The notes under the pieces were generated by a model. The model made no database searches, was not told the DNA's origin, and saw nothing but the letters and a program-made list of their open reading frames with translations. Shown one piece after another: positions 2 through 22,987 of a stretch of DNA of 32,000 nucleotides (position 1 is its first letter; each line of letters opens with the position of its first letter). The stretch spans positions 5,370,001-5,402,000 of the forward strand of contig NC_003272.1 in assembly GCF_000009705.1 (NCBI RefSeq), written 5' to 3'. Both the position numbers and the translations under genes were made by a program. The stretch is from Nostoc sp. PCC 7120 = FACHB-418. Its GTDB lineage: Bacteria; Cyanobacteriota; Cyanobacteriia; Cyanobacteriales; Nostocaceae.

Positions 2-205
2 GCTATCGTGCCACCCCAGGTAAAACCATTTTTACTGTTGAATCCACTAACACCTATTATTGAAAGTTTGCGTCAAATTACACTATCAGGAAATTTACCG
101 GATTTAAGTTTAATTTGGGGTGGTTTACTCGGCGGCATAATTATTTTGTCATTGGGATGGTTTTGTTTTCAGTTGTGGCGACATCAATTTATGGATCTGC
201 TGTAG
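2..205 (+). CDS. C-terminal fragment of an ABC-2 type polysaccharide export permease (Wzm-like); 5' end lies outside the window
   Basis: The frame is open from the window edge to TAG 203-205. It ends in a hydrophobic TM-like segment (LLGGIIILSLGWFCF). The stop abuts the ATG of the ABC ATPase (TAGATG at 203-208), the usual permease-ATPase arrangement. Confidence 0.6.
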   Translation, partial: AIVPPQVKPFLLLNPLTPIIESLRQITLSGNLPDLSLIWGGLLGGIIILSLGWFCFQLWRHQFMDLL

Positions 206-946
206 ATGGAAGTAATTCGTCTGGATAAAGTTTCGCTATGGCGGCGAACCCAAGAAGAGTTTTCTTATGACCTCAAGAAAACTCTCCTATCTTTGATAGA
301 AGGTAAATATCGTAAGCCAGCGAAAAAATTGGTTTTAGACAACGTCGATTTAGTTGTTGAAAAAGGCGACAAAATTGGTATTATTGGCGCAAATGGATCT
401 GGTAAATCAACTTTATTGAAGATCATTTCTGGTATACTTCAACCAACGACTGGCACAGTCAGAGTCAAAGGGCAAGTTGCACCTTTGATTGAACTAGGTG
501 CTGGTTTTGATGCAGAAATATCTGTAATGGATAATATTCTGCTCTATGGTGTATTACTGGGATTTTCGAGGGCGGAAATGAAAGAAAGGGCGAACTCAAT
601 ATTGGAGTTTGCAGAATTACAGGACTATGCTTTAGTTCCTGTAAAAGGACTTTCTTCTGGTATGGTTGCTCGTTTAGGGTTTTCCATTGCCACAGATGTG
701 CAGCCAAATATCTTAATTTTAGATGAGGTCTTATCGGTAGGAGACGAAAATTTTAAAAATAAATGCAAGCAAAGAATTGATAATTTTTGGAATGGAGATG
801 CAACAGTTTTAGTAGTTTCCCATGATTTACAGTTTGTTAAACAATATTGTAATCAGTTGGTTTGGTTATCTCATGGAAAGATAGAGTTTATAGGCGATTC
901 AGGAGAGGCAATTCAACATTATTTAAGTACATTAACATCCACATGA
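206..946 (+). CDS. wzt: Polysaccharide/O-antigen export ABC transporter ATP-binding protein (Wzt/TagH/KpsT-like), nucleotide-binding domain only
   Basis: Walker A GANGSGKST, ABC signature LSSGM, Walker B ILILDE and H-loop VSHD are present. At 246 aa it has no C-terminal extension. It immediately follows the permease fragment. Confidence 0.9.
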   Translation: MEVIRLDKVSLWRRTQEEFSYDLKKTLLSLIEGKYRKPAKKLVLDNVDLVVEKGDKIGIIGANGSGKSTLLKIISGILQPTTGTVRVKGQVAPLIELGAGFDAEISVMDNILLYGVLLGFSRAEMKERANSILEFAELQDYALVPVKGLSSGMVARLGFSIATDVQPNILILDEVLSVGDENFKNKCKQRIDNFWNGDATVLVVSHDLQFVKQYCNQLVWLSHGKIEFIGDSGEAIQHYLSTLTST

Positions 947-956
947 ATATCTAAAC

Positions 957-3947
957 ATGGATACTTTCAATTATCAAAATTTTTATAATCAAGAATATTA
1001 TCTAAATATGGTACCGGGTATTCCTTATGATAGGGAAGCTCATGGTGGACACTGGTTACGTTTTTTCAATACAGTTGCAGATAGGTTAATTAACTATGTT
1101 TCACCCACCTCTGTTCTAGATGTGGGATGCGCCAAAGGTTTTTTGCTGGAAGCATTTTACAATCGAGGCATTCTAGTACATGGTTTCGATTATTCAGAAT
1201 ACGCCATATCTTGTGTACGAGAAGATTTAAAACCCTTTGCTTTTGTTGCTTCGGCTGCCAATTCAAACGCATTTCTAGAGAAACAGGATAGTTATGATTT
1301 GATAACTTGTATTGAAGTAGTTGAACATATGCCACGGGATGAGGCATGGTTGGCAATTAAAAATATGTGCCAGTCTGCTAAATCAATATTCTTTTCATCT
1401 ACATCAGATGATTTTGCTGAACCGACTCATTTGACTGTTTTACCCCGTATTTACTGGCTAGAAACTTTTCTTTCATTTGGCTTTGTACCAGATTACAAGT
1501 TTGATATACATGATCTCATACCACACGGAATTCTACTACGAAAAATAGATGATAATCTGACAGCATTCAAAATGCTTATTGAAGTAAATGAAACAAACTT
1601 AGAAGTAATAAAACAGCAAAAAATAGATATAGAAAAATTAAACTCAGAAAAAGTTAATTTAGAGAATAAATTACAACAAACTCAGACAGAGTTAGAGCGA
1701 TCGCACTCCCAACTACAGCAGACTCAGACAGAGTTAGAGCGATCGCACTCCCAACTACAGCAAACTCAGACAGAATTAGAGCGATCGCACTCCCAACTAC
1801 AGCAGACTCAGACAGAGTTAGAGCGATCGCACTCCCAACTACAGCAGACTCAGACAGAGTTAGAGCGATCGCACTCCCAACTACATCAGACTCAGACAGA
1901 ATTAGAGCGATCGCAATCTCAACTACAGCAGACTCAGACAGAACTGGAGCGATCGCAGTCCCAATTGCAACAAATTCAGATGGCTTTGACTTTGCCTCAG
2001 TCCCAACTATACCAAATGCAGACAGAGTTAGAACATTGGAAAAACCTTGTCGACTGGATGGAGGGAAGTAGATTCTGGAAGTTACGAGCCTTATGCTTGA
2101 GTCTAAAGAAAAAAATAATAAATTTTCCTATCATTAAGCTTGACTTTGGCAGTTTGCCTGTTTTTCGTAAAAACAACTATCCCATATTTGTCAAGCGTAC
2201 AGGTAAGCTGATAAAGAATCAGATCATGAGCTTTCGCACTCAAAATGATTTCGCTGATGAAATATTAGCAGGAGTGCTACAAAGCTTTGCTGAATCTCCA
2301 GAATATAGTCAATGGATTAAAGATTATGAAGCAAAAAACGATGAATTGAAGGAACAAAGAATCAATGCTGCATCGTTTCCGTATCAACCTGTCTTAAGTA
2401 TAATTCTTCCAGTTTATAAACTACCACTAACTGTCTTACAAGAGACAATCAATAGTGTTATTCAACAAACTTACTCCAATTGGGAGCTATGTATTGCTTT
2501 TGCAGATATAGATAATTATCAAACAATTGATTATTTAAAAACCTTGAGTTTACAAGAAAAACGAATAAAGCTTAAGGTGATGGCGGAGAACAAAGGGATT
2601 TCTGGTAACTCTAATGTTTCTCTAAATATGGCTTCGGGCGAATTTGTAGCTTTACTCGATCATGATGACTTATTAGCACCTTTTGCCTTTTATGAAGTCA
2701 TCAGTGAATTGAACAAGCAACCAGATTTAGACTTTATCTACTCAGATAAAGACTGTATTAGTGCCAACAGCATGGTAAGGTCAAGGCTCTTACTCAAACC
2801 AGAGTGGAGTCCAGAAATCCTATATTCCGCTAATTATTTAACTCATTTGTGTATTGCTCGTCGCACACTTTTGGAAAAGATTGGTGGCTTTCGTCCAGAA
2901 ACAGATGGCGCGCAAGACTGGGATTTATTTTTACGTATCACAGAAAATACATCGCGTATTGCTCGAATTAATTCTGTACTTTACCATTGGCGGATTATAC
3001 AAGGTTCAACTTCCTTGGGAATAGATTCCAAGCCATACGCGCTTGAGGGACAACTGCGTTCTATTCAAGATCATCTAACTAGAACAAAATTGCCGGCCAC
3101 AGTTTCACCACATCCTGAATCTGGTTTTCGCTTAGAATGGCAAGCCTCATCTGCGGAGGTATCAATTTATATTGATGGTGATGTGTCCTGGGATTCTCTA
3201 TCAGCTTGTATTCATGCTGTTTCCGAATTTGCTGATCCCAAATTACACAAAGCAACAATAGTTTTAGCCGAACACACGTATACTTCCAAAGCTACTGAAA
3301 GAGAAAATCTTATAACAGCAGTCAATTTACCTATTGATTGGCTACCGATTAAAGAAGGAGATTCTAAATTAGCTACTTTAGCTAACACTATAAAACAAGA
3401 TAAGACTGATGTAGTTGTGTTTGTATCAGGTCTAGTTAAGAAGTTTACCGAAGGATGGATACAAGAACTAAGTGGATGGGTGCTTAACCACCCAGATATT
3501 GGATTTGTGTCCTCACTTGTTTTAACCGATAACAATTTAGTCGTAGAAGCTGGACTAGTCGTTGACCAATATAATAATGGCTCTCCCTTAATGCGAGGAA
3601 ATTTCTTATATTCCTGGGATATTTTTGGTGGGGCTTTATGGTACAGAAATTGTAGTGCTAGTTCTCCTTGGTCTATAGCTTTTAGTTATAAAAATTACTT
3701 AGAGGGAGGAGGATTACCATCTAACTCTCCTTCTCTATCACACTCGATGATTAAGCTTTGTCAAGCTATCCGTGTGAATAATAAACGAGGCTTGGTCAAC
3801 CCTCATGCTCGTGCATTTTTGCAGGATTTACCAAAAAATGATATTCCAGAATTTGACGATTCTCTAGGAAATGATCCTTATTTTCATCCTGCCTTTAGTT
3901 CAGTTGTTCCTTTAAAATTAAGAGTTAAAAATGGTAAAAAAAATTAA
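957..3947 (+). CDS. Multidomain glycan-assembly protein: N-terminal class I SAM methyltransferase, about 160-aa coiled coil, GT2 glycosyltransferase, and a second divergent GT2-like domain
   Basis: 996-aa ORF with an ATG start. MT motif I is LDVGCAKGF, with CIEVVEHM further on. The 14-aa unit QQTQTELERSHSQL is repeated with Leu every 7th residue. The GT2 N-terminus is LSIILPVYK and the DXD is LDHDD. The C-terminal region HPDIGFVSSLVLTDNNLVVEAGLVVD resembles a second GT-A domain. Confidence 0.85.
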   Translation: MDTFNYQNFYNQEYYLNMVPGIPYDREAHGGHWLRFFNTVADRLINYVSPTSVLDVGCAKGFLLEAFYNRGILVHGFDYSEYAISCVREDLKPFAFVASAANSNAFLEKQDSYDLITCIEVVEHMPRDEAWLAIKNMCQSAKSIFFSSTSDDFAEPTHLTVLPRIYWLETFLSFGFVPDYKFDIHDLIPHGILLRKIDDNLTAFKMLIEVNETNLEVIKQQKIDIEKLNSEKVNLENKLQQTQTELERSHSQLQQTQTELERSHSQLQQTQTELERSHSQLQQTQTELERSHSQLQQTQTELERSHSQLHQTQTELERSQSQLQQTQTELERSQSQLQQIQMALTLPQSQLYQMQTELEHWKNLVDWMEGSRFWKLRALCLSLKKKIINFPIIKLDFGSLPVFRKNNYPIFVKRTGKLIKNQIMSFRTQNDFADEILAGVLQSFAESPEYSQWIKDYEAKNDELKEQRINAASFPYQPVLSIILPVYKLPLTVLQETINSVIQQTYSNWELCIAFADIDNYQTIDYLKTLSLQEKRIKLKVMAENKGISGNSNVSLNMASGEFVALLDHDDLLAPFAFYEVISELNKQPDLDFIYSDKDCISANSMVRSRLLLKPEWSPEILYSANYLTHLCIARRTLLEKIGGFRPETDGAQDWDLFLRITENTSRIARINSVLYHWRIIQGSTSLGIDSKPYALEGQLRSIQDHLTRTKLPATVSPHPESGFRLEWQASSAEVSIYIDGDVSWDSLSACIHAVSEFADPKLHKATIVLAEHTYTSKATERENLITAVNLPIDWLPIKEGDSKLATLANTIKQDKTDVVVFVSGLVKKFTEGWIQELSGWVLNHPDIGFVSSLVLTDNNLVVEAGLVVDQYNNGSPLMRGNFLYSWDIFGGALWYRNCSASSPWSIAFSYKNYLEGGGLPSNSPSLSHSMIKLCQAIRVNNKRGLVNPHARAFLQDLPKNDIPEFDDSLGNDPYFHPAFSSVVPLKLRVKNGKKN
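1674..2051 (+). repeat. In-frame 42-bp (14-aa) tandem repeat: 7 near-perfect units (1674-1967) plus 2 degenerate units (1968-2051), each good unit containing a HIP1 site
   Basis: Direct reading shows units 2, 4 and 5 are identical 42-mers (cagcagactcagacagagttagagcgatcgcactcccaacta). Units 1-7 differ by only a few nt. GCGATCGC recurs at exactly 42-bp spacing. Confidence 0.95.
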
Positions 3948-6075
3948 ATTACCCAAATTTCTCAAAGACATAATTAAGGAAAACATCATCGTAGATAGAT
4001 ACATAAGAGATGCTACCGCACTTGCGGGTATCATGGATTTCTCTTGTGCAGATATTTCTGAAATACAGCAGCATCCTGAGCGAGTCAATCAATCAGGCAG
4101 TCAAACTATCAATTGGTATGTACCACCATTTGAAAACGCTTTTTATGGTGGTGTTATGACCATACTCCGCACTGCTGATTATTTACATCAGCATGGAAAA
4201 ATCAAACAAAGATTTCTGATTTGTGGAGATAGTAATGCTGAAGTGATGCTTACTAAGATTACTAATGCTTTTCCTAATTTGAATACTGCTGAAGTAATCA
4301 TTCTCAACTCCATGGAGGCTATTCAGAACATTCCACCATCAGACTTCTCAATAGCTACCCTTTGGACAACAGCTTATGTCCTATTAAAAGTAAACAATAC
4401 TGGCTTAAAATTTTATTTTATACAAGATTTTGAACCCCTGTTTTATCCTGCTGGCTCAACTTACGCTCAAGCTGAGGCAACTTACCGTTTTGGGTTCTAT
4501 GGAATTGCTAACACTATCAGTTTAAGAAAAATATATGAAACTGAATATGCTGGCATAGCGACTCATTTTACACCATGTGTAGATACAAAGGTCTTTTATC
4601 CTGACAGTAGCATCAGGAAAAATGATACTTCCAAGCGCGTATTTTTTTATGGAAGACCAGGACATCCACGTAATGGATTTGAGTTAGCAGTTGAAGCAAT
4701 GCGTAAGCTGAAAACCCGTTATGGTTCTCAGATAGAAATATTATCTGCTGGTGCTAATTGGAATCCTAAAGAATATGGTTTAGAAGGAGTTATAGAAAAC
4801 CTGGGACTATTAAGTTATGAAGAAACAGGAAATTTGTATCGTTCTTGCCATATTGGACTTTCAATGATGATGACCAAACACCCATCTTATTTACCTTTTG
4901 AGATGATGGCTTGTGGTGTATTGGTGGTATCGAATATTAATTCGAGTACACAATGGTTATTGAAAGACAGGGAAAATTGTCTATTATCCCACCCTAGTGC
5001 TAGTTGTATCGCTGAAACAATATCAGAAGCTATTGATAAGTATGATGATTTTGATTTAATCAGAAACAATGCAGTTAATTGCATTAAATATAACCATGCT
5101 GATTGGTCTGTTGAGATTAAGAAAATCACCGATTTTATTCAATATCATGCAATCAAATACAGTAACTGTTTAGTGCAGTCTAATGGAGATATTTTTGGTT
5201 CTGCTGTTTTTGTTGTAAACAATGGGTATCGTCATTATGTGCCAGATTTAGACTGGATAATCCAACATGGATTCATTTGGCCAACCGATGTTCAAGTTGT
5301 TAGTGATGAAGTGTTACTTAGTCTGCTGCCAGGTCGTCCTGCTCCGCACAAATGGACATTGGAAAATTGGGTAAACCCACCTAGAGATGTCAGCATGACG
5401 ATAATAAGAGAAATTGCTGTGTCTAGACTGAGTGGGAATGGCGTAGAATTTGGCGCGGCGGCATCTCCTTTCCCGATACCGTTACATTGTGATGTCAAAT
5501 ACGCTGATATTTGTCCTACAAATGAACTGCAAAAAAAACTGTATCCTGGACAAGTAGTTTATAGCTTGATTGAACCCGATGTTATTACTGATTTCAACAC
5601 TTTGGAAGGGATTGAAGACGATAGTCTTGACTTCATAGTTGCTTGTCATGTGATTGAACATACTAGAAATCCTATTGCTGCTATAGAGGCATCTTATAAA
5701 AAACTACGTATGGGAGGGTCTCTTGTTTTAGTAATACCGGATAAAGATAGAACTTTTGATAAGCAGCGTGACTTAACTACCTTAGAACATCTAATTCTAG
5801 ATTATGAATCTCCCTTGAGAGAAAGAGATAAGGAACACTATTTTGAATTCTTTAAACTTGCATTTCCCGTCTTAGAAGAAAATTTTATTTCCACAGTAGA
5901 AAAAAATTTCCAGGAACAAGCGGATATTCACTATCATACATTTACTTATGAAAGTTTTAGTGTACTAATAAGTCATGTATGTAAAAATATTTCCCCTTGG
6001 TCGTCAGTATGGTCACAACCTACGTTATCTAACCCAATAGAAGATATAGAATTTTACTTTGTATTAACTAAATAA
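3931..6075 (+). CDS. Bifunctional glycosyltransferase (GT-B, WsaF-like rhamnosyltransferase-type N-terminal half) plus C-terminal class I SAM methyltransferase
   Basis: 714-aa ORF. The N-terminal half has motifs typical of WsaF-like/GT4 enzymes (FFYGRPGHPRNGFELAVEA, PSYLPFEMMACGVLVV). The C-terminal half has MT motifs (VEFGAAASP, LDFIVACHVIEHTRNP, GGSLVLVIPD). Its ATG overlaps the upstream stop by 17 nt. Confidence 0.8.
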   Translation: MVKKIKLPKFLKDIIKENIIVDRYIRDATALAGIMDFSCADISEIQQHPERVNQSGSQTINWYVPPFENAFYGGVMTILRTADYLHQHGKIKQRFLICGDSNAEVMLTKITNAFPNLNTAEVIILNSMEAIQNIPPSDFSIATLWTTAYVLLKVNNTGLKFYFIQDFEPLFYPAGSTYAQAEATYRFGFYGIANTISLRKIYETEYAGIATHFTPCVDTKVFYPDSSIRKNDTSKRVFFYGRPGHPRNGFELAVEAMRKLKTRYGSQIEILSAGANWNPKEYGLEGVIENLGLLSYEETGNLYRSCHIGLSMMMTKHPSYLPFEMMACGVLVVSNINSSTQWLLKDRENCLLSHPSASCIAETISEAIDKYDDFDLIRNNAVNCIKYNHADWSVEIKKITDFIQYHAIKYSNCLVQSNGDIFGSAVFVVNNGYRHYVPDLDWIIQHGFIWPTDVQVVSDEVLLSLLPGRPAPHKWTLENWVNPPRDVSMTIIREIAVSRLSGNGVEFGAAASPFPIPLHCDVKYADICPTNELQKKLYPGQVVYSLIEPDVITDFNTLEGIEDDSLDFIVACHVIEHTRNPIAAIEASYKKLRMGGSLVLVIPDKDRTFDKQRDLTTLEHLILDYESPLRERDKEHYFEFFKLAFPVLEENFISTVEKNFQEQADIHYHTFTYESFSVLISHVCKNISPWSSVWSQPTLSNPIEDIEFYFVLTK

Positions 6076-6113
6076 TGAGACACTTAATTAAGTGAGATAC
6101 CTGAAGCTAGCTA

Positions 6114-6659
6114 ATGAACTTCATTCATACAAAAATTCCTGCTATTTCCCTCCTCGAACCGCAAGTCTTCAGTGACTCACGCGGCTTATTCTTTGAATCT
6201 TACAATCAGCAAAATTTTACAGATAAACTTGGTATCACCGTAAACTTCGTTCAAGATAACCATTCATTTTCCCAACATAACGTCCTGCGTGGACTGCACT
6301 ATCAAATCATTCAACCCCAAGGCAAATTAGTCCGCGCTGTCGTGGGGACAATTTTTGATGTTGCTGTAGATATTAGAAAAAGCTCTCCCAGTTTCGGACA
6401 ATGGGTAGGTTATGAACTTAGCGCCGAGAACAAACGCCAATTGTGGGTACCTCCAGGCTTTGCTCATGGCTTTCTCGTACTGTCTGAAGTTGCCGAAGTT
6501 ATTTACAAAACTACAGATTACTATGCGCCTGGTGGCGATCGCACTATTCTATGGAATGATCCTGATTTAGCAATAAATTGGCCTCTCAAAGAACCACCAA
6601 TTTTATCAGCCAAAGATAGCCAGGGTCAGCCATTTAAAAGTGCGGAAGTATATGAATGA
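6114..6659 (+). CDS. rfbC: dTDP-4-dehydrorhamnose 3,5-epimerase
   Basis: 181 aa with RmlC cupin signatures: DSRGLFFE, RGLHYQ, GKLVRAVVGTIFDVAVDIR, VPPGFAHGF. Confidence 0.9.
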   Translation: MNFIHTKIPAISLLEPQVFSDSRGLFFESYNQQNFTDKLGITVNFVQDNHSFSQHNVLRGLHYQIIQPQGKLVRAVVGTIFDVAVDIRKSSPSFGQWVGYELSAENKRQLWVPPGFAHGFLVLSEVAEVIYKTTDYYAPGGDRTILWNDPDLAINWPLKEPPILSAKDSQGQPFKSAEVYE

Positions 6660-7536
6660 ACCAATCCTACTACTAGGTAGCAACGGTCAAGTAGGTCAAG
6701 AAATCCAAAATCTCCTTGCACCTAGATACAAAATTATCTCAGTCGCACGACCAAGGATAGACCTGACTCAAGCCGATAGTCTGCGTCAAATCATCAGAGA
6801 AGTCCAACCACAGATAATTATTAACGCCGCCGCTTACACTGCTGTAGACAAAGCCGAAACTGAACCCGAAATAGCTACAGCTATCAATGCTACAGCACCC
6901 CAAATTATCGCCGAAGAAAGCCAAAAACTCGGCTCGTTCTTAATTCACATATCCACAGATTACGTTTTTGATGGTCAGCAAAGTCACCCTTACCAAGAAA
7001 CTGACCCCACTAACCCCTTAAGTGTTTATGGTAAGACCAAACTAGCCGGAGAAATAGCCATTCAACAAACTCACCCTCATCACATTATTCTGCGTACAGC
7101 TTGGGTTTATGGCAGTTTTGGTAAAAGTAACTTTGTCAAAACCATGCTGCGACTGGGTGCAGAACGCCAAGAAATTCGGGTAGTAAAAGATCAAATTGGC
7201 TCCCCTACTTGGGCGCAAGATATCGCTGACACCATAGCCCAAGTGATACCCCAAATACCAGAAATTTCTGGGACTTACCACTACACAAATACTGGTGTAA
7301 TTAGCTGGTACGAATTTGCTGTTGCTATTTTTGCAGAATCTCAAAAACTAGGTTTTCCTCTCACAGTCCAACAAATTATTCCTATTACCACCGCCGAATA
7401 TCCGACTTTAGCTCCCCGTCCTGCCTATTCTGTCCTGGCTTGTGAGAAGATGTCACAAGTTCTGGGAACTGCTCCCCCTCATTGGCAACAAAGACTGCGG
7501 TTGATGCTGCAAGACTGGCTCTCCAAATATTCTTGA
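6652..7536 (+). CDS. rfbD: dTDP-4-dehydrorhamnose reductase
   Basis: Rossmann motif LLLGSNGQVG, the RmlD motif STDYVFDG, and YGKTK catalytic residues. I prefer the ATG at 6652, which overlaps the rfbC stop (ATGAATGA), over the GTG at 6640 given in the ORF track. Confidence 0.88.
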   Translation: MNEPILLLGSNGQVGQEIQNLLAPRYKIISVARPRIDLTQADSLRQIIREVQPQIIINAAAYTAVDKAETEPEIATAINATAPQIIAEESQKLGSFLIHISTDYVFDGQQSHPYQETDPTNPLSVYGKTKLAGEIAIQQTHPHHIILRTAWVYGSFGKSNFVKTMLRLGAERQEIRVVKDQIGSPTWAQDIADTIAQVIPQIPEISGTYHYTNTGVISWYEFAVAIFAESQKLGFPLTVQQIIPITTAEYPTLAPRPAYSVLACEKMSQVLGTAPPHWQQRLRLMLQDWLSKYS

Positions 7537-7538
7537 TT

Positions 7539-8615
7539 ATGAAAGCACTAATTCTCTCTGGCGGTAGAGGTACACGTCTACGTCCACTCACCTATACTGG
7601 AGCAAAGCAACTTGTCCCAGTTGCGAACAAGCCTATTTTATGGTACGGGATTGAAGAGATGGTCGCGGCTGGTATTACTGATATCGGTATAATTATCAGC
7701 CCAGAAACAGGGGCAGAAGTACAAAGTAAAACTGGAGATGGAAAACTTTTTGGAGCGAACATCACCTATATTTTACAAGAACAGCCTGCCGGCCTAGCTC
7801 ATGCCGTTACTGTTGCTCGTCCCTTCTTAAAAGATTCACCTTTTGTCATGTACTTGGGTGATAACCTAATTCAACAAGGCGACTTAAGCAACTTTTTACA
7901 AAAGTTTATTCAAGAACAACCTGATGCTCTAATTCTCTTGCGTGAGGTTGTCAACCCTAGCGCCTTTGGTGTAGCTAAGGTAGATGATACGGGGCGGGTA
8001 CTACAATTAGTCGAAAAACCCAAAGTTCCTCCATCCAATCTAGCTCTAGTAGGCGTTTATTTCTTTTCCCCGATTATTCATGATTCTATTGCTCGTATCC
8101 AGCCTTCAAGCAGAGGAGAACTGGAAATTACTGATGCTATTCAACGCTTAATAGACGATAAAAGACAAGTATTAGCTTGTAATTTATATGGTTGGTGGTT
8201 AGACACCGGTAAAAAAGATGATTTATTAGAAGCTAATCGCTTAATTTTAGATACCTGTTTAACAACGTCTAACTTAGGGGAAGTGGATGCTAAAAGTCAA
8301 ATCATTGGACGAGTTCAAATCGGAGTCAATTCCCAGATCATCAATTGTACAATTCGTGGCCCCGTGGTTATTGGCAATAATTGTTATTTAGAAAATTGCT
8401 TTATTGGCCCTTATAGCAGCATCGCCAACAATACAACACTCATCGACTCAGATTTAGAACATAGCGTAATTTTAGAAGGTGCTAAAATATCCGGAATTGA
8501 TCAGCGAATCATTGATAGTGTAATTGGACAACGAGCGCAACTAACAATTGCCCCCCGTCGCCCAAAAGCCTTACGCTTTTTGATTGGTGATGATTGTCAA
8601 ATTGAACTGACATAA
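7539..8615 (+). CDS. rfbA: Sugar-1-phosphate nucleotidylyltransferase, long form with a C-terminal left-handed beta-helix domain; probably glucose-1-phosphate thymidylyltransferase
   Basis: The N-terminus MKALILSGGRGTRLRPLTY carries the GGxGTRL signature. The C-terminal third has hexapeptide-like repeats (IGxNxxI). The ATG at 7539 lies 2 nt after the rfbD stop. The upstream part of track ORF 7482 overlaps rfbD and is not credible. Context with rfbC and rfbD supports a dTDP-sugar role. Confidence 0.78.
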   Translation: MKALILSGGRGTRLRPLTYTGAKQLVPVANKPILWYGIEEMVAAGITDIGIIISPETGAEVQSKTGDGKLFGANITYILQEQPAGLAHAVTVARPFLKDSPFVMYLGDNLIQQGDLSNFLQKFIQEQPDALILLREVVNPSAFGVAKVDDTGRVLQLVEKPKVPPSNLALVGVYFFSPIIHDSIARIQPSSRGELEITDAIQRLIDDKRQVLACNLYGWWLDTGKKDDLLEANRLILDTCLTTSNLGEVDAKSQIIGRVQIGVNSQIINCTIRGPVVIGNNCYLENCFIGPYSSIANNTTLIDSDLEHSVILEGAKISGIDQRIIDSVIGQRAQLTIAPRRPKALRFLIGDDCQIELT

Positions 8616-8787: not shown

Positions 8788-9816
8788 ATGCAGTTTATAG
8801 AAAAAATCGGTATTGTTTTAGCCACATATAATCCCAATCTAGAATATTTTGAGAAACAAATACAGTCTATTAAACAACAAAGTTGGAAAAATTGGGTTTG
8901 TCACATTGTAGATGACTGTTCTCACTCAGAATATCAGGTGGGCATCAAGAATATTATTGATAACGATCCACGTTTTATTTGCCATTTCCACAGTCATAAT
9001 CTCAACCACTATTATAACTTTGAACGAGGTCTAAAATATTGCGCCCAAGATAAATCTATTACTGCGATATCTCTTGCTGATCAAGATGATATTTGGCATG
9101 ACGACAAGTTAAAGATTTTATTAAAAAAACTACGTTCACAAAAGGCAGTCTTAATACATTCTGATTTAGAATTAATTAATAGTTACGACCAAACTATTCA
9201 CCCATCTGCCTGGGATTTTGAAGGGCGTAAACCACATAAATTATCCCACGATTTATTGTTACTTCGCAACGTGGTAACAGGATGCTCTGTATTATTTTGT
9301 ACTTCTCTGCTCACGGATGTATTACCATTTCCACCACAAAATAAAATTAGCTGGTATCACGATTGGTGGATAGCCTTAGTCGCATCACATAGAGGCAAAA
9401 TTGTGCATATCCACAAACCTTTAGTTTGGTATAGAATTCATAATGCCAATAATGTCGGTGTTCTCAAAGACTCAGGCAAAATACATTGTGAGTTATTGCT
9501 TTTATGTCGCAAGAAATTTAAAATCAATGGCAATAGTTATTTAGTTCACAGAGACTTTAGTAAAGCATTTTATCGTCGATTTAAACGAGAACTGAACGAG
9601 CTAGGTTATACCAACCCTTTTGATGATAGAAAATTGGATTTTGGTTGGCATATTCTTAAATTGTTGTATAAAAGTTTGCTTGTAGGCTATAATTCAGAAG
9701 GTGCGGCATTAAGAATTGGGGTCTTAAAATTAATTTTCGATATCCAAAGGAGTTACAGAATCATACTTTATCATTGTTTAAAAACGTTCAAAAGTTATTA
9801 TAAAAACAGTCAATAA
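8788..9816 (+). CDS. GT2 family glycosyltransferase
   Basis: GT-A N-terminus IGIVLATYNPNLEYF, then DDCS, with DXD-like ADQDDIW. 342 aa. Confidence 0.8.
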   Translation: MQFIEKIGIVLATYNPNLEYFEKQIQSIKQQSWKNWVCHIVDDCSHSEYQVGIKNIIDNDPRFICHFHSHNLNHYYNFERGLKYCAQDKSITAISLADQDDIWHDDKLKILLKKLRSQKAVLIHSDLELINSYDQTIHPSAWDFEGRKPHKLSHDLLLLRNVVTGCSVLFCTSLLTDVLPFPPQNKISWYHDWWIALVASHRGKIVHIHKPLVWYRIHNANNVGVLKDSGKIHCELLLLCRKKFKINGNSYLVHRDFSKAFYRRFKRELNELGYTNPFDDRKLDFGWHILKLLYKSLLVGYNSEGAALRIGVLKLIFDIQRSYRIILYHCLKTFKSYYKNSQ

Positions 9817-9818
9817 GT

Positions 9819-10706
9819 ATGTCCGAAGGGTCAAATGTTCTAGTATCAATTATTTTAGTTAACTATAATGGCGCTGATATTTTACCAGATTGCTTAAATT
9901 CTATAGATAAATTTATTTCTAAAGATAACTGCGAGATCCTTCTAGTTGATAATGCTTCTCAAGATAATAGCTATGAGTTAGTTGCTCAGGATTTTCCTGA
10001 TGTAAAAATAGTTAGATTGCCGAAAAACTATGGTTTTGGCGCAGGAAATAATGCTGGTGCAAAAATCGCTAAAGGTAAATTTTTACTATTATTAAATACT
10101 GATACGATACTAACTACTAATATTTTACCGCATCTGATTGATTTGATGAGAGAAAATCCGGATGTGGGTATTATTGGTACTAAATTAGTTTTTCCAGATG
10201 AGACATTTCAGATTTCTTTTGCATATACAATTGGTATCAAGGGAGAATATAAATCTAGAAAACTCCATGAATACGCCGAAGACAAATCTAAGTTAAATAG
10301 CTTGGAGCAGGAATTCAACACGATTAAAGAGGTGGATATTGTTGTCGGAGCAGCCTTATTTATTCGTGCAGATTTATTTCATAGTGTGGGTGGTTTTGAC
10401 GAAAAGTTTTTTATCTATTTTGAAGATGCAGACTTATGTAGACGAGTGCAAAATCAAGGATATAAAATTTTATATACACCTCAAGTGTCTTTAATACATA
10501 TAAGAGGCCACTCTATGAAAAAAAACGCCAATGCTACGGTGGTGGAATATAGACGTAGCCAACTTTATTATTACAAAAAACATTGTCCTGTATGGGAGAG
10601 AATTATTTTAAGAATATATCTATTTGCTAAATTCTTGCCTGAGTTTTTGGCAACAAGAAATCCTTACAGTTTAGAAATAATAAAATTATTATTCGTAATA
10701 GCTTAA
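9819..10706 (+). CDS. GT2 family glycosyltransferase (rhamnosyltransferase-like subfamily)
   Basis: VSIILVNYNG, VDNASQDNS, LLLNTDT and FIYFEDADLCRR are typical of WbbL-like GT2 enzymes. It starts 2 nt after the previous stop. Confidence 0.85.
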   Translation: MSEGSNVLVSIILVNYNGADILPDCLNSIDKFISKDNCEILLVDNASQDNSYELVAQDFPDVKIVRLPKNYGFGAGNNAGAKIAKGKFLLLLNTDTILTTNILPHLIDLMRENPDVGIIGTKLVFPDETFQISFAYTIGIKGEYKSRKLHEYAEDKSKLNSLEQEFNTIKEVDIVVGAALFIRADLFHSVGGFDEKFFIYFEDADLCRRVQNQGYKILYTPQVSLIHIRGHSMKKNANATVVEYRRSQLYYYKKHCPVWERIILRIYLFAKFLPEFLATRNPYSLEIIKLLFVIA

Positions 10707-10743
10707 ATATACTAAGCTATTTTGATACTTAATTTAGCCAGTT

Positions 10744-11811
10744 ATGACTGTATTGGTAAACTTATCTTTTGCACCCTTAAAGCCAACTGGATGGTTAACC
10801 TATAGTCTCAATTTGTTACCACATATTAAATCTTTAGGTATTAATGTTGTCAGTCCCATTGCAATTGACAATATAAAAGTTTATTCATCCCCAACTAATA
10901 TTACAACTGAGGGAGGAATTAAAGGACATTTTCAAAGGTTGATGTGGGTGCAGTTGCAACTACCTAGTTTTTACAACCGATTAAAGTCTCGATTATTATT
11001 TTCACCTATTCCTGAAGTTCCTTTATTTTCTAGTTGTCGCAGTGTTGTTACTATTCATGATTTAATCCCTTTAAGATTTCCCCAGGAATTTTCTGCGGCG
11101 CAACTTTTTTACTGCCGTAATTATCTACCTGCGGTGATTAAGCAGTCAGAGCATATTATTTGTAATTCCTTGATTACGGCTCATGATATCCAGCGTTTTC
11201 TAGGTGTTTCAGAAAAGAAAGTAACTGTAATTCCTTTAGCTATTGATCAGCAAAATTTTCGTTTTTTGGACTTGCCGAGAAAAAATTATTTCTTGTATTA
11301 TGGGCGACATAATATTTATAAAAATTTAAATCGAATTATTGCCGCTTTTGCTGCTTTACCAAATAAGGATTATGAACTGTGGTTAGCAGGGCCGACTGAT
11401 GCACGTTATACCCCGACGTTGCAGGCAAAAGTTGAGGAACTAGGGATAACTGATCGTGTGAAGTTCCTTGATTATGTTTCTTATGATGAATTACCTATCA
11501 TTATTAATCAAGCGATCGCACTTGTTTTCCCCAGTCTTTGGGAAGGCTTTGGTTTTCCAGTCTTAGAAGCCTTGGCCTGCGGTACTCCTGTCATTACCTC
11601 TAACCTCTCTTCCTTACCTGAAGTGGCTGGAGATGCAGCCATCCTCATCAACCCCTACAACACAGCAGAAATCACAGATGCCATGCAGACTATAGCTAAT
11701 GATGTCAAATTGCAATCCCATCTGTCTCGCCAAGGAATCGCTAGAGCCAATCAATTCAGTTGGGAAAGAACAGGTAAAGCAACGAGTGAAGTCTTATCTC
11801 GTTATCTTTGA
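10744..11811 (+). CDS. GT4 (GT-B) family glycosyltransferase
   Basis: The C-terminal EX7E region reads PSLWEGFGFPVLEALACGTPVITSNLSSLPEVAGDAA. 355 aa. Confidence 0.85.
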   Translation: MTVLVNLSFAPLKPTGWLTYSLNLLPHIKSLGINVVSPIAIDNIKVYSSPTNITTEGGIKGHFQRLMWVQLQLPSFYNRLKSRLLFSPIPEVPLFSSCRSVVTIHDLIPLRFPQEFSAAQLFYCRNYLPAVIKQSEHIICNSLITAHDIQRFLGVSEKKVTVIPLAIDQQNFRFLDLPRKNYFLYYGRHNIYKNLNRIIAAFAALPNKDYELWLAGPTDARYTPTLQAKVEELGITDRVKFLDYVSYDELPIIINQAIALVFPSLWEGFGFPVLEALACGTPVITSNLSSLPEVAGDAAILINPYNTAEITDAMQTIANDVKLQSHLSRQGIARANQFSWERTGKATSEVLSRYL

Positions 11812-17771: not shown

Positions 17772-19412
17772 TTAGAAAGTGAATGTAGTACGGAGTGTAC
17801 CTACATAAATAGTATCGTTGTTGTTGTTATTCTCTGGGTTGAAGATCACCAATAAACCAGGAGTAACGAGAATATTGTCAGATAATTTCAGCTTGTAAAG
17901 ACCTTCTAAATGATAAGAAGTACCGTTTTCTGAAGCAATATTGTTACCACCAGTGATTTTAGGTGGCTGACCAAAGATCAAACCCAATGTATTCCCTTCT
18001 CTACCAAAGTCTCTGATACCAAGGCTAGCAGCCCAATACCAAGCATCTGCGTCTCTGTTATCCTGTAGAGAATCAACAGTGGTGTAGCCTACCCAACCAC
18101 CAAGGGTCAGCGTAGAACTGGGTTGGAATGTGGCTTGAATACCGTAGTGGTTTGCTTCGGTTTTAGCATTTCCAAAGGGTCTGTTGGCAAAGGCACTGCC
18201 TGTATCCCCAAAGACCGCTCCATTTTGTTGATAAGTACGAGCGTAAGCAAAACCAAGGTTAAGAGCTTGGTTTGGTTTGAAAGCAATTTGACCAAAAATG
18301 GTGCTATCACCCTCGAATAATCCACCTTCTCTTCCAGCCGCTATCAGCCCAGGATTAGCCGCACTATTCCGGCCTGTTGCCATATAAGCTGCTGTAAATG
18401 TCAAAGGCCCACTGGGATTAACGTTGACTGTGATACCAGCACCATCATAGGCTTGGCGGTAGATAGGACTAAAGCGTCCGTAGCGGGAGAGAGCGCCAGA
18501 ACCACTACTTCTAAAGTCAGGGTTGAACACATTGGCGTTTTCGTTTAACTCAGCACCAGTAGCATCAATTTTGACACGGATAGCATCGCTGAAGTTGAAT
18601 GCGTAGTTGAGTTTATCGATGGAAACACTGTTATCAGTACCGCCGTCATAACCCAAGCGAGTCATGTTAGTACCCGTGGAAGCATTACCTATGTTATTGG
18701 CATTGTTAGAAATAATGTTTCCAGCATTTAACCGAGTTTGCAATTGATCTGTGCCGGTGAAGCTGCTGTTTAAGGTTAAACGTACCCGGTTAGCAAAAGT
18801 CAGGTTAGAATCTAAATCGCTTCGGGCCGCTTGAGAACCTGAAGGTAGCGCTCTTGTGTCACCAAAAGCCTGAGACACACTGAAGATTGCTTCTCCAGAA
18901 AGCTTGGTAGTAGTAGAGAATTGATTAGCTTCTAACTCAGCAGTACGAGCTTCTAAAGCATCAACCCGACCGCGTAAAGTTGCTAATTCAGCAGAGAATT
19001 CTTCTTGTAAACGCTGTAAAGTAGCTAAATCTTGCTTGGTAACTAAATCAGCTGTTGCTGTAGCAATCAGTTCGTTAACTCTGTCTAAACAAGCATTCAA
19101 GCCAGCCGCAAACTCATAGCGGGTCAAAGCACGATTACCACGGTATGTACCGTTGGGATAACCTGCGATACATCCATAGCGCTCAACGAGAGATTGTAGT
19201 GCTTGGAATGCCCAATCGGTAGGTTGCACATCTGAAAATTGTGATACAGATGTTACCTGGCCAATGTTTTGAGATTCAGAAGCTTGTGTTAATTGGGAAA
19301 CACTCATTACTGGCTCGCCAGCTTCAACTGCTAAGGCGCTATTAGTAGCGAAAAAGGTCGCAGCAAAAAGAACTGGGCTAAATTTTAAAGCGTTCCAGAA
19401 TAGTTTTGTCAT
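17772..19412 (-). CDS. Outer-membrane porin with an N-terminal SLH domain, a coiled-coil linker and an OprB-type beta-barrel
   Basis: The signal peptide is MTKLFWNALKFSPVLFAATFFATNSALA. The SLH motif is TDWAFQALQSLVERYGCIAGYPNGTYRGNRALTRYEFAAGLNACL. A coiled segment follows (LQRLQEEFSAELATLRGRVDALEARTAELE). The remainder is Gly/Asn/Thr-rich alternating sequence ending in TFTF. Confidence 0.85.
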   Translation of the reverse strand: MTKLFWNALKFSPVLFAATFFATNSALAVEAGEPVMSVSQLTQASESQNIGQVTSVSQFSDVQPTDWAFQALQSLVERYGCIAGYPNGTYRGNRALTRYEFAAGLNACLDRVNELIATATADLVTKQDLATLQRLQEEFSAELATLRGRVDALEARTAELEANQFSTTTKLSGEAIFSVSQAFGDTRALPSGSQAARSDLDSNLTFANRVRLTLNSSFTGTDQLQTRLNAGNIISNNANNIGNASTGTNMTRLGYDGGTDNSVSIDKLNYAFNFSDAIRVKIDATGAELNENANVFNPDFRSSGSGALSRYGRFSPIYRQAYDGAGITVNVNPSGPLTFTAAYMATGRNSAANPGLIAAGREGGLFEGDSTIFGQIAFKPNQALNLGFAYARTYQQNGAVFGDTGSAFANRPFGNAKTEANHYGIQATFQPSSTLTLGGWVGYTTVDSLQDNRDADAWYWAASLGIRDFGREGNTLGLIFGQPPKITGGNNIASENGTSYHLEGLYKLKLSDNILVTPGLLVIFNPENNNNNDTIYVGTLRTTFTF

Positions 19413-19541: not shown

Positions 19542-20168
19542 TTACTTATTTTTTAAGTTCATATTCATAATTGTTTTATTTGGTAAACATAGAATAATAC
19601 GACGTTTATAACGTACTAGCAAGCCTTCATTTTCAAACTGCTGTAGTAACCTTGTTACAGTCACTCTTGTTGTATTCAAGACCTCTGCTATTTCTTGATG
19701 AGTAATATACATCTCAATGAGTTTGCCGTTTTCTAAGTTACGCCCAAACTTTTGACTTAGCCAAACAAGAAATTGCCATAAACGTAGGGAAAGAGGTTTA
19801 CGGTGGACTATGCTTAAAAGCTCCTCTGAACGTTGAATATGCGTCAGCAGATTATTAGTGTATTGATACCAAAGATGCTGGGGTATAATAATAGCCTCTA
19901 CGCTTGTCAGGCATTCAATTTGATATGGATTTACCTTGGATAAAGGATAACCAATCACATCTCCTACTCCCCAATACCCCAAAGTAATAAATGAGCCATC
20001 CTCACTCCAGGTGAGAGTCCGAACAGCCCCACTCTCAATGCGCCAAAGTATGTCTTTACAAGGTGGGATGACTTCTTTACGTGTAAATAGTCTTTGTGTT
20101 AAATGCTCATTTAGATTTGAGTCATTCAAGATAGCAGTAGAAGTTTGAGGCAAAATTATAGAAGACAT
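19542..20168 (-). CDS. Crp/Fnr family transcriptional regulator
   Basis: 208 aa. The N-terminal part is a cNMP-binding-like beta-roll (ILWRIESGAVRTLTWSEDGSFITLGYWGVGDVIG). The C-terminal HTH is THQEIAEVLNTTRVTVTRLLQQFENEGLL. Confidence 0.8.
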   Translation of the reverse strand: MSSIILPQTSTAILNDSNLNEHLTQRLFTRKEVIPPCKDILWRIESGAVRTLTWSEDGSFITLGYWGVGDVIGYPLSKVNPYQIECLTSVEAIIIPQHLWYQYTNNLLTHIQRSEELLSIVHRKPLSLRLWQFLVWLSQKFGRNLENGKLIEMYITHQEIAEVLNTTRVTVTRLLQQFENEGLLVRYKRRIILCLPNKTIMNMNLKNK

Positions 20169-20849
20169 TATATGAGCATTTTCTAGAGGAGAAAAAATGA
20201 ATCTTCAAATAAGTTGGGTTTTTGCAGTTACATGGACATCTGAATAAGTATTGTGATTGATAAATCTTTAATAAGCTTAGTGTTTTAAAATATAAACGCA
20301 AAATTTTAAGGTAATATTTAATTTTTTGATTATCTTATGGTAGCTATTTTCAAACATGAGTATAACTATTATATTTTTCTATAAAAAAGTAATTATTAAG
20401 GTATTTTTACTGAAAAATACTTTATCTTTAAGAGTCTATATTTATGGTTTGTAAGTAATTGTTAAATTGCTATTTTAGAGTTAAATCATAGGGTCTTTAT
20501 ATATTGATATTTATCAGATAGCTGTATTTTAAGCACCTAAAACCAGGACAAGTATAATCCTTGCTGATGAATAACATAAGATTACTCAATTTTGTTTTTT
20601 CTTCCTTTCGCGTTAAACACTCATGTGATAATTACGCAATAAGAGAATGAAAATTTCTTTTCTCTCTACCTAATAGTCTCTAATTCCTACGTTGAGGTGA
20701 GAGTCTGGTGATGATAAGCAACTAAAGCCTTATTCAAGACTTTTAGTTAAAAATAATACTCTCTACTATGTGTTTAGCTGTCGTTACAAGCTAATTTAGG
20801 TCTGCAAGTTTAAGAAAAGATAAACGATTGGTAAAATATCACCTTTAAT

Positions 20850-20881
20850 AAAAAAAATCCCACCCCTGGGAGGGATGGGAT
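20850..20881 (-). terminator. Intrinsic terminator of phoU
   Basis: On the minus strand, auCCCAUCCCU-ccc-AGGGGUGGGau forms an 11-bp stem. It includes one G-U pair that works only on this strand. A U7-8 tail follows. The hairpin lies 25 nt after the phoU stop. Confidence 0.75.
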
Positions 20882-20906
20882 GAGCTTAAAAATACTCCAG
20901 CTATAA

Positions 20907-21575
20907 TTAGGCGCGTTGACCAGTAACGATATATGCTACTCGTTGACCGATGTTAGTTGCATGATCAGCCATACGTTCTAAACAACGAATTGCCAGTGCT
21001 AGCAGTATAATTGGCTCAACAACGCCTTGCACATCTCGTTGCTGGGATAAAGTTTGATAGAGGTGATCATAGGCATTATCTACAGCATCATCTAAATGCT
21101 TGATACTACGTCCACCGGCTTCATCTAAATCTGCCAAAGCCACTAAGCTAGTGGCTAGCATAGCTTGGGCGTGATGCGCCATGACAGCAATTTCCGGTAG
21201 AGATGGGTGAGGCGGATAAGGAAAGATTTTGACTGCTATTTGAGCTAAATCTTTGGCATAATCACCAATACGCTCTAAATCTCTGACTAATTGCATAAAG
21301 GCACTCAAACAGCGCAAATCTTGGGCTGTAGGTGCTTGTAATGTCATTATGGATGTACAATCTGATTCTATTTGTCTATAAAAACGGTCTATTTTTTTAT
21401 CTAATCGGGGAAGTTCCTCAGCAGCTTTTAAGTCGCGGGAGAATAAGGCTTGGTGGCTAAGGCGGAATGATTGTTCTACCAAAGCTCCCATGCGTAATAC
21501 ATCCCGTTCTAAACGCCTAATGGCTCGTGCTAACTGGGGATTTTCAGGGTTGGGACTATAAACGACAGCTTTCAC
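20907..21575 (-). CDS. phoU: Phosphate signalling complex protein PhoU
   Basis: 222 aa with two PhoU repeats (ERIGDYAKDLA, ERMADHATNIG). The N-terminus RDVLRMGALVEQ aligns with the enterobacterial PhoU N-terminus. The start is a GTG at 21575. Confidence 0.9.
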   Translation of the reverse strand: MKAVVYSPNPENPQLARAIRRLERDVLRMGALVEQSFRLSHQALFSRDLKAAEELPRLDKKIDRFYRQIESDCTSIMTLQAPTAQDLRCLSAFMQLVRDLERIGDYAKDLAQIAVKIFPYPPHPSLPEIAVMAHHAQAMLATSLVALADLDEAGGRSIKHLDDAVDNAYDHLYQTLSQQRDVQGVVEPIILLALAIRCLERMADHATNIGQRVAYIVTGQRA

Positions 21576-21624
21576 ACTTGTAGTCTCAAACGTGAAGATA
21601 TCTTTAACTATAGTCTTGGCGTTG

Positions 21625-22929: not shown

Positions 22930-22987
22930 TTGAGTTTAAGTTGTTAGTTGCGGGTGATTAATAAAAACTAACAACTATCTCAATAGC

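Follow-up and report, generated by a model that had tools for sequence, protein, structure and literature searches.

RESULTS

Domain organization of alr4487

We analyzed a window of 32,000 nucleotides (nt) from Nostoc sp. PCC 7120 (contig NC_003272.1, positions 5,370,001 to 5,402,000 of the forward strand; coordinates below count from the first nucleotide of this window) with a focus on alr4487, a gene that joins methyltransferase (MT) and glycosyltransferase (GT) domains in one polypeptide. The gene (957..3947, + strand) is a single uninterrupted reading frame, and its 996-residue product exactly matches BAB76186.1 of Nostoc (Anabaena) sp. PCC 7120, for which the published locus tag is alr4487. 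It lies in the cluster alr4485-alr4494, in which the gene order is wzm-wzt-alr4487-alr4488-rmlC-rmlD-rmlA-like-GT2-GT2-GT4. The protein consists of a class I S-adenosylmethionine (SAM)-dependent methyltransferase head (residues 30-196), 25 unbroken heptads (residues 197-371), a GT2 domain, and a divergent second GT-A domain, giving a methyltransferase/coiled-coil/GT2/GT-A' arrangement. This four-part layout had been proposed in a preliminary description of the window and is borne out by Pfam, by the heptad register, and by an AlphaFold2 (AF2) model of the full-length protein (75 aligned sequences; mean predicted local distance difference test score [pLDDT], 82.6). The profile search suggested at that time likewise detects Methyltransf_23/25/11 and the GT2 family PF00535 in alr4487.

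The head domain (1044..1544, +) was delimited with Pfam, AF2, and Foldseek. The Pfam families Methyltransf_23/25/11/31/12 match residues 49-140 with E values from 1e-10 to 4e-8, all above their gathering scores (Methyltransf_23, 1.3e-10; Methyltransf_25, 2.3e-10; Methyltransf_11, 6.3e-9). Motif I, LDVGCAKGF, occupies residues 54-62 (nt 1116-1142), exactly where it had been placed before; it contains the glycine-rich stretch DVGCAKG (residues 55-61), and an acidic residue (D78) follows strand 2, as in class I SAM-MTs. An AF2 model of residues 1-238 has a pLDDT of 93 and adopts the class I SAM-MT fold. With this model, Foldseek retrieves generic class I SAM-MTs at E values of about 1e-9, with the sugar methyltransferases EvdMO1 (N-terminal domain), KijD1, and TylM1 as well as CgnL among the neighbors. 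Among 71 homologs of the head, G57, E123, H124, and H158 are invariant, and D55, C58, A59, G61, G76, and D114 are conserved in at least 90%. Because the class I SAM-MT fold matches and these residues are conserved in the 71 homologs, the head is a bona fide methyltransferase; Pfam, fold, and conserved residues agree in this respect, which answers the earlier concern that the N-terminal domain might not be a SAM methyltransferase at all.

The head is not, however, specifically similar to WbdD, the Escherichia coli O9a/O8 terminator with which it had been compared. In a sequence search, WbdD chains align with it only at residues 49-88 around motif I (E, 0.3-0.55), and WbdD is absent from the top 50 structural neighbors found by Foldseek. 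The AF2 model leaves no room for a kinase domain between head and rod, the MT ending at residue 196 and the helix beginning at residue 200. The "WbdD-type terminator chemistry" formerly attributed to the protein can therefore be retained for methylation at most, but not in the sense of specific WbdD homology or of a kinase.

The rod and its 42-nt tandem array

The head is followed by a heptad-repeat rod of 25 heptads (residues 197-371; 1545..2069, +), which substantiates the long heptad pattern noted previously. When these residues are written in rows of seven, column 1 is hydrophobic, mostly Leu, in 23 of the 25 rows. Between residues 197 and 365 there is one proline (P347) and no glycine, and the Pfam and NCBIfam matches over residues 206-358 are compositional coiled-coil matches only. 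The AF2 monomer shows rod helices at residues 200-287 and 295-370 with a pLDDT of 45-72. If the rod forms a straight coiled coil, it would be about 25 nm long.

The core of the rod is encoded by a DNA tandem repeat, a point that the preliminary description did not contain. Tandem Repeats Finder identified a 42-nt unit in 7.0 copies with 94% matches, far beyond chance, at about 1671-1964 (+). The seven near-identical, in-frame units have the translation LQQTQTELERS[HQ]SQ and the DNA sequence LQQTQTELERSHSQ, units 2, 4, and 5 being identical at the DNA level; two degenerate units follow the array and reach nt 2048. Each array unit carries the HIP1 octamer GCGATCGC, so that the array accounts for 7 of the 23 HIP1 sites of the window.

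Beyond the rod (2070..2381, +) lie a conserved (S/R)FWKLR motif, in which W374 is conserved in at least 90% of the sequences, a strongly basic and poorly ordered linker (residues 372-427), and a helical region that precedes the GT domains (residues 409-471). The AF2 model is disordered (pLDDT, <50) over the basic stretch at residues 382-414 and helical at residues 409-471. By analogy with WbdD, we considered whether an amphipathic membrane helix is present at FWKLR and dropped this idea on account of the low hydrophobic moment of residues 366-407 (0.07-0.24).

Two GT-A domains, one with intact catalytic motifs

GT2 domain 1 (residues 476-712; 2382..3092, +; pLDDT, >95) has intact catalytic motifs. 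PF00535 matches residues 481-596 with an E value of 6.6e-16. Both the domain and its motifs had been recognized before: LSIILPVYK corresponds to residues 480-488 and LDHDD to residues 567-571, although the true position of the latter, nt 2655-2669, is one base off that given originally. D568-H-D570-D571 is encoded by nt 2658-2669, and a downstream acidic motif is present at Q653-D654-W-D656. In an alignment of 121 family members, LLDHDD and QDWD are universal. The best sequence match to this domain is the A2 domain of the chondroitin polymerase K4CP (E, 2.5e-15).

Domain 2 (residues 713-960; 3093..3836, +; pLDDT, >90) is divergent. AF2 predicts two confident GT-A domains, at residues 480-710 and 714-960, in agreement with the suggestion of a second, GT2-like C-terminal region, whereas the Pfam scan, which found two GT2 stretches in canonical relatives, gave no match in domain 2 of alr4487. 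At the DXD-equivalent position, S824-G-L826 (nt 3426-3434) of alr4487 takes the place of the NND/NDD or DGx of relatives, and HSMIKLC replaces the ND(V/I)DLC seen in the canonical members inspected. The DXD-equivalent triplet is NND, NDD, or NSD in 96 of the 121 family sequences. Within the alr4487 clade (18 sequences), the first motif reads SG(Q/L/K/E) and neither Asp position of the second carries an acid; the first motif is also absent from two Bacillus relatives. An exhaustive HMMER search with domain 2 yielded 235 representative proteins at E values up to 0.001, and many of the distant matches carry D-G-x where alr4487 has S-G-L. A word-indexed search with the isolated C-terminal domain gave only 2 matches and missed known orthologs; negative results of that search should thus be treated with caution.

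By the usual sequence criteria, domain 2 of alr4487 would be noncatalytic or noncanonical. It is nevertheless not decaying: identity within the clade is 64-71% (80-84% for domain 1), and a strain in which Q704* of alr4487 is the sole mutation is phage resistant (PMC12507012). When residues 450-960 were compared with the PDB by Foldseek, tandem GT-A polymerases ranked first, namely, the heparosan synthase PmHS2 (8vh8; E, 1.8e-18) and K4CP (2z86/2z87; E, about 1e-13 to 2e-14), with several alignments extending across both GT-A domains (about 545-637 columns). The C-terminal tail (residues 961-996; 3837..3944, +) contains a conserved DPYFHP motif, with D973 and P974 shared by at least 90% of the sequences.

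The surrounding gene cluster

The window opens with the 3' end of wzm (alr4485; 2..202, +), an ABC-2 permease gene that is cut by the window edge. Its frame-2 translation ends in GWFCFQLWRHQFMDLL and a stop codon, and the whole gene (268 residues, PF01061) is present in locus L001. It is followed by wzt (alr4486; 206..946, +), which encodes an ABC transporter ATPase of 246 residues (PF00005 at residues 44-175) with a 244-residue galactan exporter Wzt/RfbE and TagH as its best NCBIfam matches. Wzt measures 244-247 residues in all syntenic cyanobacterial loci. In 80 further loci from many phyla, it is either about 240-300 or 400-490 residues long; the family as a whole thus does not always have a short Wzt, although all five cyanobacterial loci in which Wzt was found do.

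The start of alr4488 (3931..6075, +) overlaps the end of alr4487 by 17 nt. This gene encodes a WsaF-like GT-B rhamnosyltransferase (Pfam WsaF_C, 2.3e-32, and WsaF_N) with a second methyltransferase domain (Methyltransf_23) at about residues 499-613. Residues 34-387 are homologous to the solved beta-1,2-rhamnosyltransferase WsaF (PDB 2x0d; E, 1.6e-25). We considered the methyltransferase domains of alr4487 and alr4488 as possible paralogs and rejected this relationship (22% identity; E, 0.05). The alr4488 domain is instead homologous to the extra C-terminal MT of the Bacillus relative P0028 (29% over 205 residues; E, 2e-13). Paenibacillus proteins of about 1,300 residues fuse MT, GT2, and WsaF domains in a single chain. 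The fusions in Bacillus and Paenibacillus support a joint action of alr4487 and alr4488 as a single machine.

Next come rmlC (6114-6659, +; Pfam dTDP_sugar_isom, 1.4e-70), rmlD (6640-7536, +; RmlD_sub_bind, 6.9e-108), and an rmlA-like nucleotidyltransferase gene (7539-8615, +; NTP_transferase, 2.8e-65). Accordingly, alr4487 does lie after wzm/wzt and before the rhamnose genes, as originally stated, but it is not adjacent to the latter, with alr4488 intervening before rmlC. The cluster lacks rmlB (dTDP-glucose 4,6-dehydratase). As a side observation, the product of the rmlA-like gene ends in a hexapeptide-repeat (LbH) extension, a feature not usually seen in RmlA. The cluster closes with alr4492 (GT2), alr4493 (GT2), and alr4494 (GT4) (8788..11811, +; Pfam), probably primer/adaptor or side-chain enzymes. 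Its 3' boundary is marked by a convergent uvrD/pcrA-like helicase gene after alr4494, and unrelated genes lie upstream of the cluster. A scan of the cluster for promoters and terminators gave counts at chance level.

Rod length and head exchange among relatives

Rod length was measured in ten close orthologs as the distance from HGILLR, at the end of the MT domain, to (S/R)FWKLR. The values (84, 84, 91, 98, 112, 140, 154, 168, 182, and 182 residues) are all multiples of 7, corresponding to 12-26 heptads. The parts of the protein beyond the rod vary far less: the linker from rod to GT2 measures 109-113 residues in most orthologs (76 in P0010), and the GT half measures 510-516 residues, one truncated protein excepted. 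The rods of P0018 (137 residues) and P0019 (123 residues) differ by exactly 14. Such heptad-quantized variation fits a ruler but does not show ruler function.

Each ortholog has its own 42-nt array, 94-97% identical internally, with a unit sequence that differs by species; in P0017, the array unit is 7 residues. The combination of internal homogeneity and species specificity indicates concerted evolution. A 968-residue version of the protein, P0001, with flanks that are 99.95% identical, was considered as a case of copy-number polymorphism within the strain. We rejected it because it stems from a k=127 metagenome assembly in which the repeat may have collapsed, and the same caution applies to the 954-residue P0127.

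Heads differ among relatives. At a syntenic locus compared in three strains (UbiA-ArsA-Tsr0524-Uma2-wzm-wzt-X-WsaF-like), the head of protein X is a methyltransferase in PCC 7120, GT4-like in Trichormus variabilis ARAD, and sulfotransferase-like in a Nostoc sp., the Pfam scores of the latter two heads lying just below the gathering scores. In all three strains, Wzt measures 244-246 residues. At the DNA level, ARAD is 97% identical to the window through wzm and wzt to nt 950, where an unrelated head begins; 92% identity resumes inside the repeat array (nt 1821) and runs to nt 5155, after which the two differ at the alr4488 methyltransferase region until 94% identity is regained from rmlC onward. 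The converse is seen in P0018, in which the head is 76% identical to that of alr4487 while the polymerase shows only 43% identity in domain 1 and 16% in domain 2. More-distant cyanobacterial relatives carry a pyruvyltransferase (E, 1e-27), Methyltransf_24 (E, 1e-26), or GT1 head. The differences between heads and the ARAD junction in the array together indicate that the rod is the junction of a modular head/chassis system.

The second divergent region of ARAD contains a four-gene insertion (L083 14497-19380, compared with window 5156-6132) that replaces the alr4488 methyltransferase domain. The inserted genes encode a 435-residue protein without a Pfam match, a GtrA-like/GT2 fusion, and two proteins of the epimerase/dehydratase type; extra epimerase/dehydratase-type genes occur in locus L084 as well. 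The ARAD WsaF-like protein has only 406 residues and no MT domain, so that both methyltransferase domains are absent from this locus. Considering this cassette together with the replaced head, the locus resembles in its behavior a serotype-variable O-antigen locus that has two or more cassette sites.

Outside the cyanobacteria, the Bacillus proteins P0028 and P0029 are collinear with alr4487 at 31-33% identity. P0028, from Bacillus zanthoxyli (locus L002), comprises MT, short coil, GT2, degenerate GT-A, and MT, and its neighbors are a TylF-type methyltransferase gene and a Glyco_trans_1_2 (PF13524) gene. Its interpretation as a WsaE-like gene in an ABC transporter cluster was rejected, as the locus contains neither wzm nor wzt. 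It follows that proteins of the alr4487 type are not restricted to ABC transporter clusters.

Phage resistance mutations and the glycan product

Recurrent, mostly loss-of-function mutations in alr4487, alr4488, and their neighbors have been described in Nostoc sp. PCC 7120 lines selected to resist cyanophages A-4L and AN-15, and 35 resistant strains carry mutations in alr4485-alr4494 (PMC12507012, PMC10811720). Besides Q704*, two frameshifts in alr4487 have been published: (A)7->8 at position 1159/2991 recurs in many resistant strains (PMC10811720, supplement), and (A)6->7 at position 2882/2991, with a frameshift at codon 961, was found in a resistant strain with one further mutation (PMC12507012, supplement). 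The A7 run at nt 2109-2115 and the A6 run at nt 3833-3838 of the window coincide with these sites and may be slippage-prone on/off sites for a receptor glycan.

We infer that the glycan is the receptor, or part of the receptor, for A-4L and AN-15. It would be an ABC transporter-dependent, L-rhamnose-containing surface polymer, most probably the O antigen of lipopolysaccharide (LPS). In the related Anabaena variabilis, L-rhamnose and 3-O-methyl-L-rhamnose (L-acofriose) are both found in the O antigen (PMC4148955). The cluster has also been listed among biofilm-related genes (PMC12267927).

Other genes in the window

A stand-alone polysaccharide pyruvyl transferase gene (28669-29718, +; PF04230, 8e-36) is found about 17 kb away from the cluster; members of this family also form the N-terminal head of the alr4487-like proteins P0092 and P0120. 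Two adjacent ORFs (24283-25266 and 25306-26385, +) encode proteins of 327 and 359 residues without a Pfam match even at an E value of 0.01. An OprB-family carbohydrate-selective porin with an N-terminal SLH domain (17772-19412, -) and a Crp-family regulator followed by PhoU and a two-component gene set (19542-23749) appear unrelated to alr4487.

DISCUSSION

Proposed function of alr4487

With moderate confidence, we propose that alr4487 is the central assembly enzyme of a surface glycan, combining terminator, ruler, and polymerase functions. This reading had been put forward in the preliminary description, and it agrees with the layout of the protein, with its genetic context, and with the variation of the rod in whole heptads; the lack of a carbohydrate-binding module (CBM) in Wzt and of acidic motifs in the second GT-A domain does not sit well with it. 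In the scheme that we envisage, the C-terminal half of alr4487 and the WsaF-like alr4488 would elongate a rhamnan linked to polyprenol on the cytoplasmic side of the membrane, while a homo-oligomeric coiled coil would keep the methyltransferase about 25 nm away. A nonreducing end that reaches the head would be O methylated without phosphate, as in WsaE and in E. coli O8-type capping, and this would halt elongation, so that modal chain length would follow rod length. Wzm/Wzt would then export the chain without reading the cap, in view of the missing CBM. The second GT-A domain may have a scaffold or acceptor-binding role.

Several points weigh against this proposal. One concerns the exporter: by Pfam and NCBIfam, the 246-residue Wzt is a nucleotide-binding domain alone, without a C-terminal CBM, and Pfam detected no CBM-like gene elsewhere in the cluster. 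A Wzt CBM is present in all characterized terminated systems, whereas CBM-less exporters such as that of Klebsiella pneumoniae O2a set chain length without a terminator (PMC11231755). The second methyltransferase on alr4488 means that methylation could be internal, and without both acidic motifs in domain 2, a two-site polymerase in this polypeptide is doubtful. Further points relate to the rod. P0008, a close relative, has a rod of 166 residues with an irregular register that breaks the multiple-of-7 rule, and rod-length variation could reflect a lack of constraint rather than tuning. The repeats have a single Leu per heptad, with Thr/Ser at the "d" positions, so that the hydrophobic core would be atypical and thin. 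The AF2 monomer breaks the rod helix at residues 285-297 (pLDDT, <50), where a hairpin could form. Finally, the coiled-coil oligomer of this scheme is putative, the AF2 model being that of a monomer.

The alternative that best withstands the evidence is that the coil serves only for oligomerization and the head for decoration, the head methylating internal rhamnose to give 3-O-methyl-rhamnose in the repeat or being redundant with the alr4488 methyltransferase. As in K. pneumoniae O2a, chain length would then be set by the coupling of polymerization to a Wzm/Wzt that is blind to the cap. We regard this as possible but less than probable. It would account for a Wzt that lacks a CBM and is equally short in loci with differing heads, and stoichiometry-controlled chain length has precedent in the CBM-less O1/O2 transporter (PMC11231755). 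Two methyltransferase domains are encoded at the locus, and in the A. variabilis O antigen, acofriose is listed among the constituent sugars rather than merely as a trace terminal group. The extra C-terminal MT of P0028 and the MT/GT2/WsaF fusions of Paenibacillus point in the same direction, as they imply that there are probably two distinct methylations; this explanation is thereby kept alive. On the other hand, a rod of about 170 residues carries the head at its distal tip, and in a review of characterized cases this placement is described only for terminators (PMC11231755). Moreover, unrelated head chemistries are swapped on the same chassis, which fits a terminal cap better than a change of the repeat, and the N-terminal methyltransferase of WsaE was shown to make a terminal 2-O-methyl cap (PMC2943079).

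A different question is whether the product is LPS at all or another envelope polymer, such as an exopolysaccharide or a protein- or cell wall-linked rhamnan. This concerns the nature of the product and not the mechanism, and we consider it unlikely. Pfam found neither an O-antigen ligase nor an initiating phosphoglycosyltransferase in the cluster, the closest characterized gene order (WsaE/WsaF) makes an S-layer protein glycan, and the listing of the cluster among biofilm-related genes would be compatible with such a polymer. Yet mutations in the cluster confer resistance to A-4L and AN-15, work cited in the phage resistance papers, and known here from those citations, reports that cyanophage sensitivity of PCC 7120 depends on LPS, and rhamnose and methyl-rhamnose are O-antigen sugars in A. 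variabilis.

Least probable, in our opinion, is that the rod is an antiparallel hairpin or interaction stalk, with the head beside the GTs, that serves as a docking arm (e.g., for alr4488 or the transporter) and drifts neutrally by slippage: the split helix of the AF2 monomer, the weak hydrophobic core, and the homogenized arrays of lineage-specific length, as expected of slippage-prone DNA, would be in line with it, but the break falls inside identical repeats without Gly or Pro at a pLDDT below 50 and hence looks like a typical monomer-folding artifact, single-heptad steps in length (84, 91, and 98 residues) preserve the register, and solved or characterized relatives of this layout are described as coiled-coil oligomers (PMC11231755).

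Returning to the terminator/ruler proposal, we put forward one extension of it that is decidedly more tentative. The homogenized 42-bp HIP1 array might be genetically unstable, tune glycan length through its copy number, and at the same time serve as a recombination junction for swaps of the capping head, resulting in a plug-and-play diversification of the phage receptor under phage pressure. The heads exchanged in this way could, equally tentatively, be methyl-, sulfo-, or pyruvyltransferases or a GT. Since the exporter has no module that reads the cap, any new head would be tolerated at once. In the literature searched, neither a tandem array-encoded, length-variable ruler nor such a plug-and-play system for coiled-coil ruler enzymes has been reported.

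If alr4487 is indeed a terminator and ruler, it provides a tractable Nostoc system with natural variants of 12-26 heptads in which the ruler idea becomes testable outside the enterobacteria. Termination would be uncoupled from export, a case outside the current Klebsiella/E. coli model; in E. coli O9a, unterminated chains do not leave the cell interior by export. Variation in rod length and head would bear on phage-host coevolution in bloom-forming cyanobacteria. If the proposal is wrong, alr4487 is an ordinary multidomain glycan-modifying enzyme.

Comparison with known systems

The combination of domains in alr4487 had been thought uncharacterized. This view is outdated, given that WsaE (2008) and ORF6 of K. 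pneumoniae O7 (KpO7; 2024) have both been characterized; we compared these two with alr4487 on the basis of published descriptions. In WsaE of Geobacillus stearothermophilus NRS 2004/3a, the terminal 2-O-methyl cap is the product of an N-terminal methyltransferase (PMC2943079), which is followed by two rhamnosyltransferase domains; the protein acts with WsaF and is encoded in a wzm-wzt-wsaE-wsaF-rml cluster (PMC2943079, PMC9415975). WsaE thus shares with alr4487 the N-terminal MT, the central and C-terminal GT domains, and the gene order including rml; its cap is methyl without phosphate, and the neighbor of alr4487, alr4488, is a true WsaF homolog. In contrast, WsaE functions in Gram-positive S-layer protein glycosylation, producing a poly-L-rhamnan, and activity is reported for both of its GT domains. 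The sources consulted (PMC2943079, PMC9415975) do not describe a ruler or coiled coil, and homology searches with alr4487 gave no match named WsaE.

KpO7 ORF6 is a single polypeptide in which a methyltransferase-kinase terminator is combined with a coiled coil and two rhamnosyltransferases of the GT2 type (Kelly et al., J Biol Chem 2024, PMC11231755). According to the same study, a coiled-coil protein is a marker of the terminator/molecular ruler strategy, and the terminator part of ORF6 has cyanobacterial orthologs. Like alr4487, ORF6 combines an N-terminal MT, a coiled coil, and two C-terminal GT2-type modules in an ABC transporter cluster. Its GT modules use dTDP-Rha, the DXDD of its first GT matches the DHDD of alr4487, and CgnL (7pd7), the closest reported structural neighbor of its MT, is also among the neighbors of the alr4487 head. 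ORF6 is larger (1414 residues), with a kinase and an Ig-like domain between MT and coil that alr4487 lacks, and its cap is a methyl-phosphate. The second GT of ORF6 requires its NXD motif, mutation of which abolishes the activity of that domain (PMC11231755), where alr4487 has SGL. Furthermore, all characterized terminated systems have a Wzt CBM, which alr4486 does not.

The concept of a terminator held away from the polymerase by a coiled coil is shared with WbdD and with WbbB of K. pneumoniae O12. WbdD has no GT modules, includes a kinase in O9a, and recruits a separate WbdA. WbbB, like alr4487, unites all functions in one polypeptide, but it terminates chains with a Kdo transferase and polymerizes them with GTs of other families. 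Both systems differ from alr4486 in having a Wzt with a CBM. K4CP (2z86) and PmHS2 (8vh8), the best structural matches to residues 450-960, have two catalytic sites with DXD, act on different sugars, and possess neither a methyltransferase nor a coiled coil.

Taken together, alr4487 probably belongs to a known class of enzymes that build, and probably measure, surface sugar chains. What is new in comparison with WsaE and ORF6 is the cap-blind exporter, the methyl-only head placed directly on the rod, the degenerate second GT-A domain, and a repeat-encoded rod of variable length that is also the junction at which heads are exchanged.

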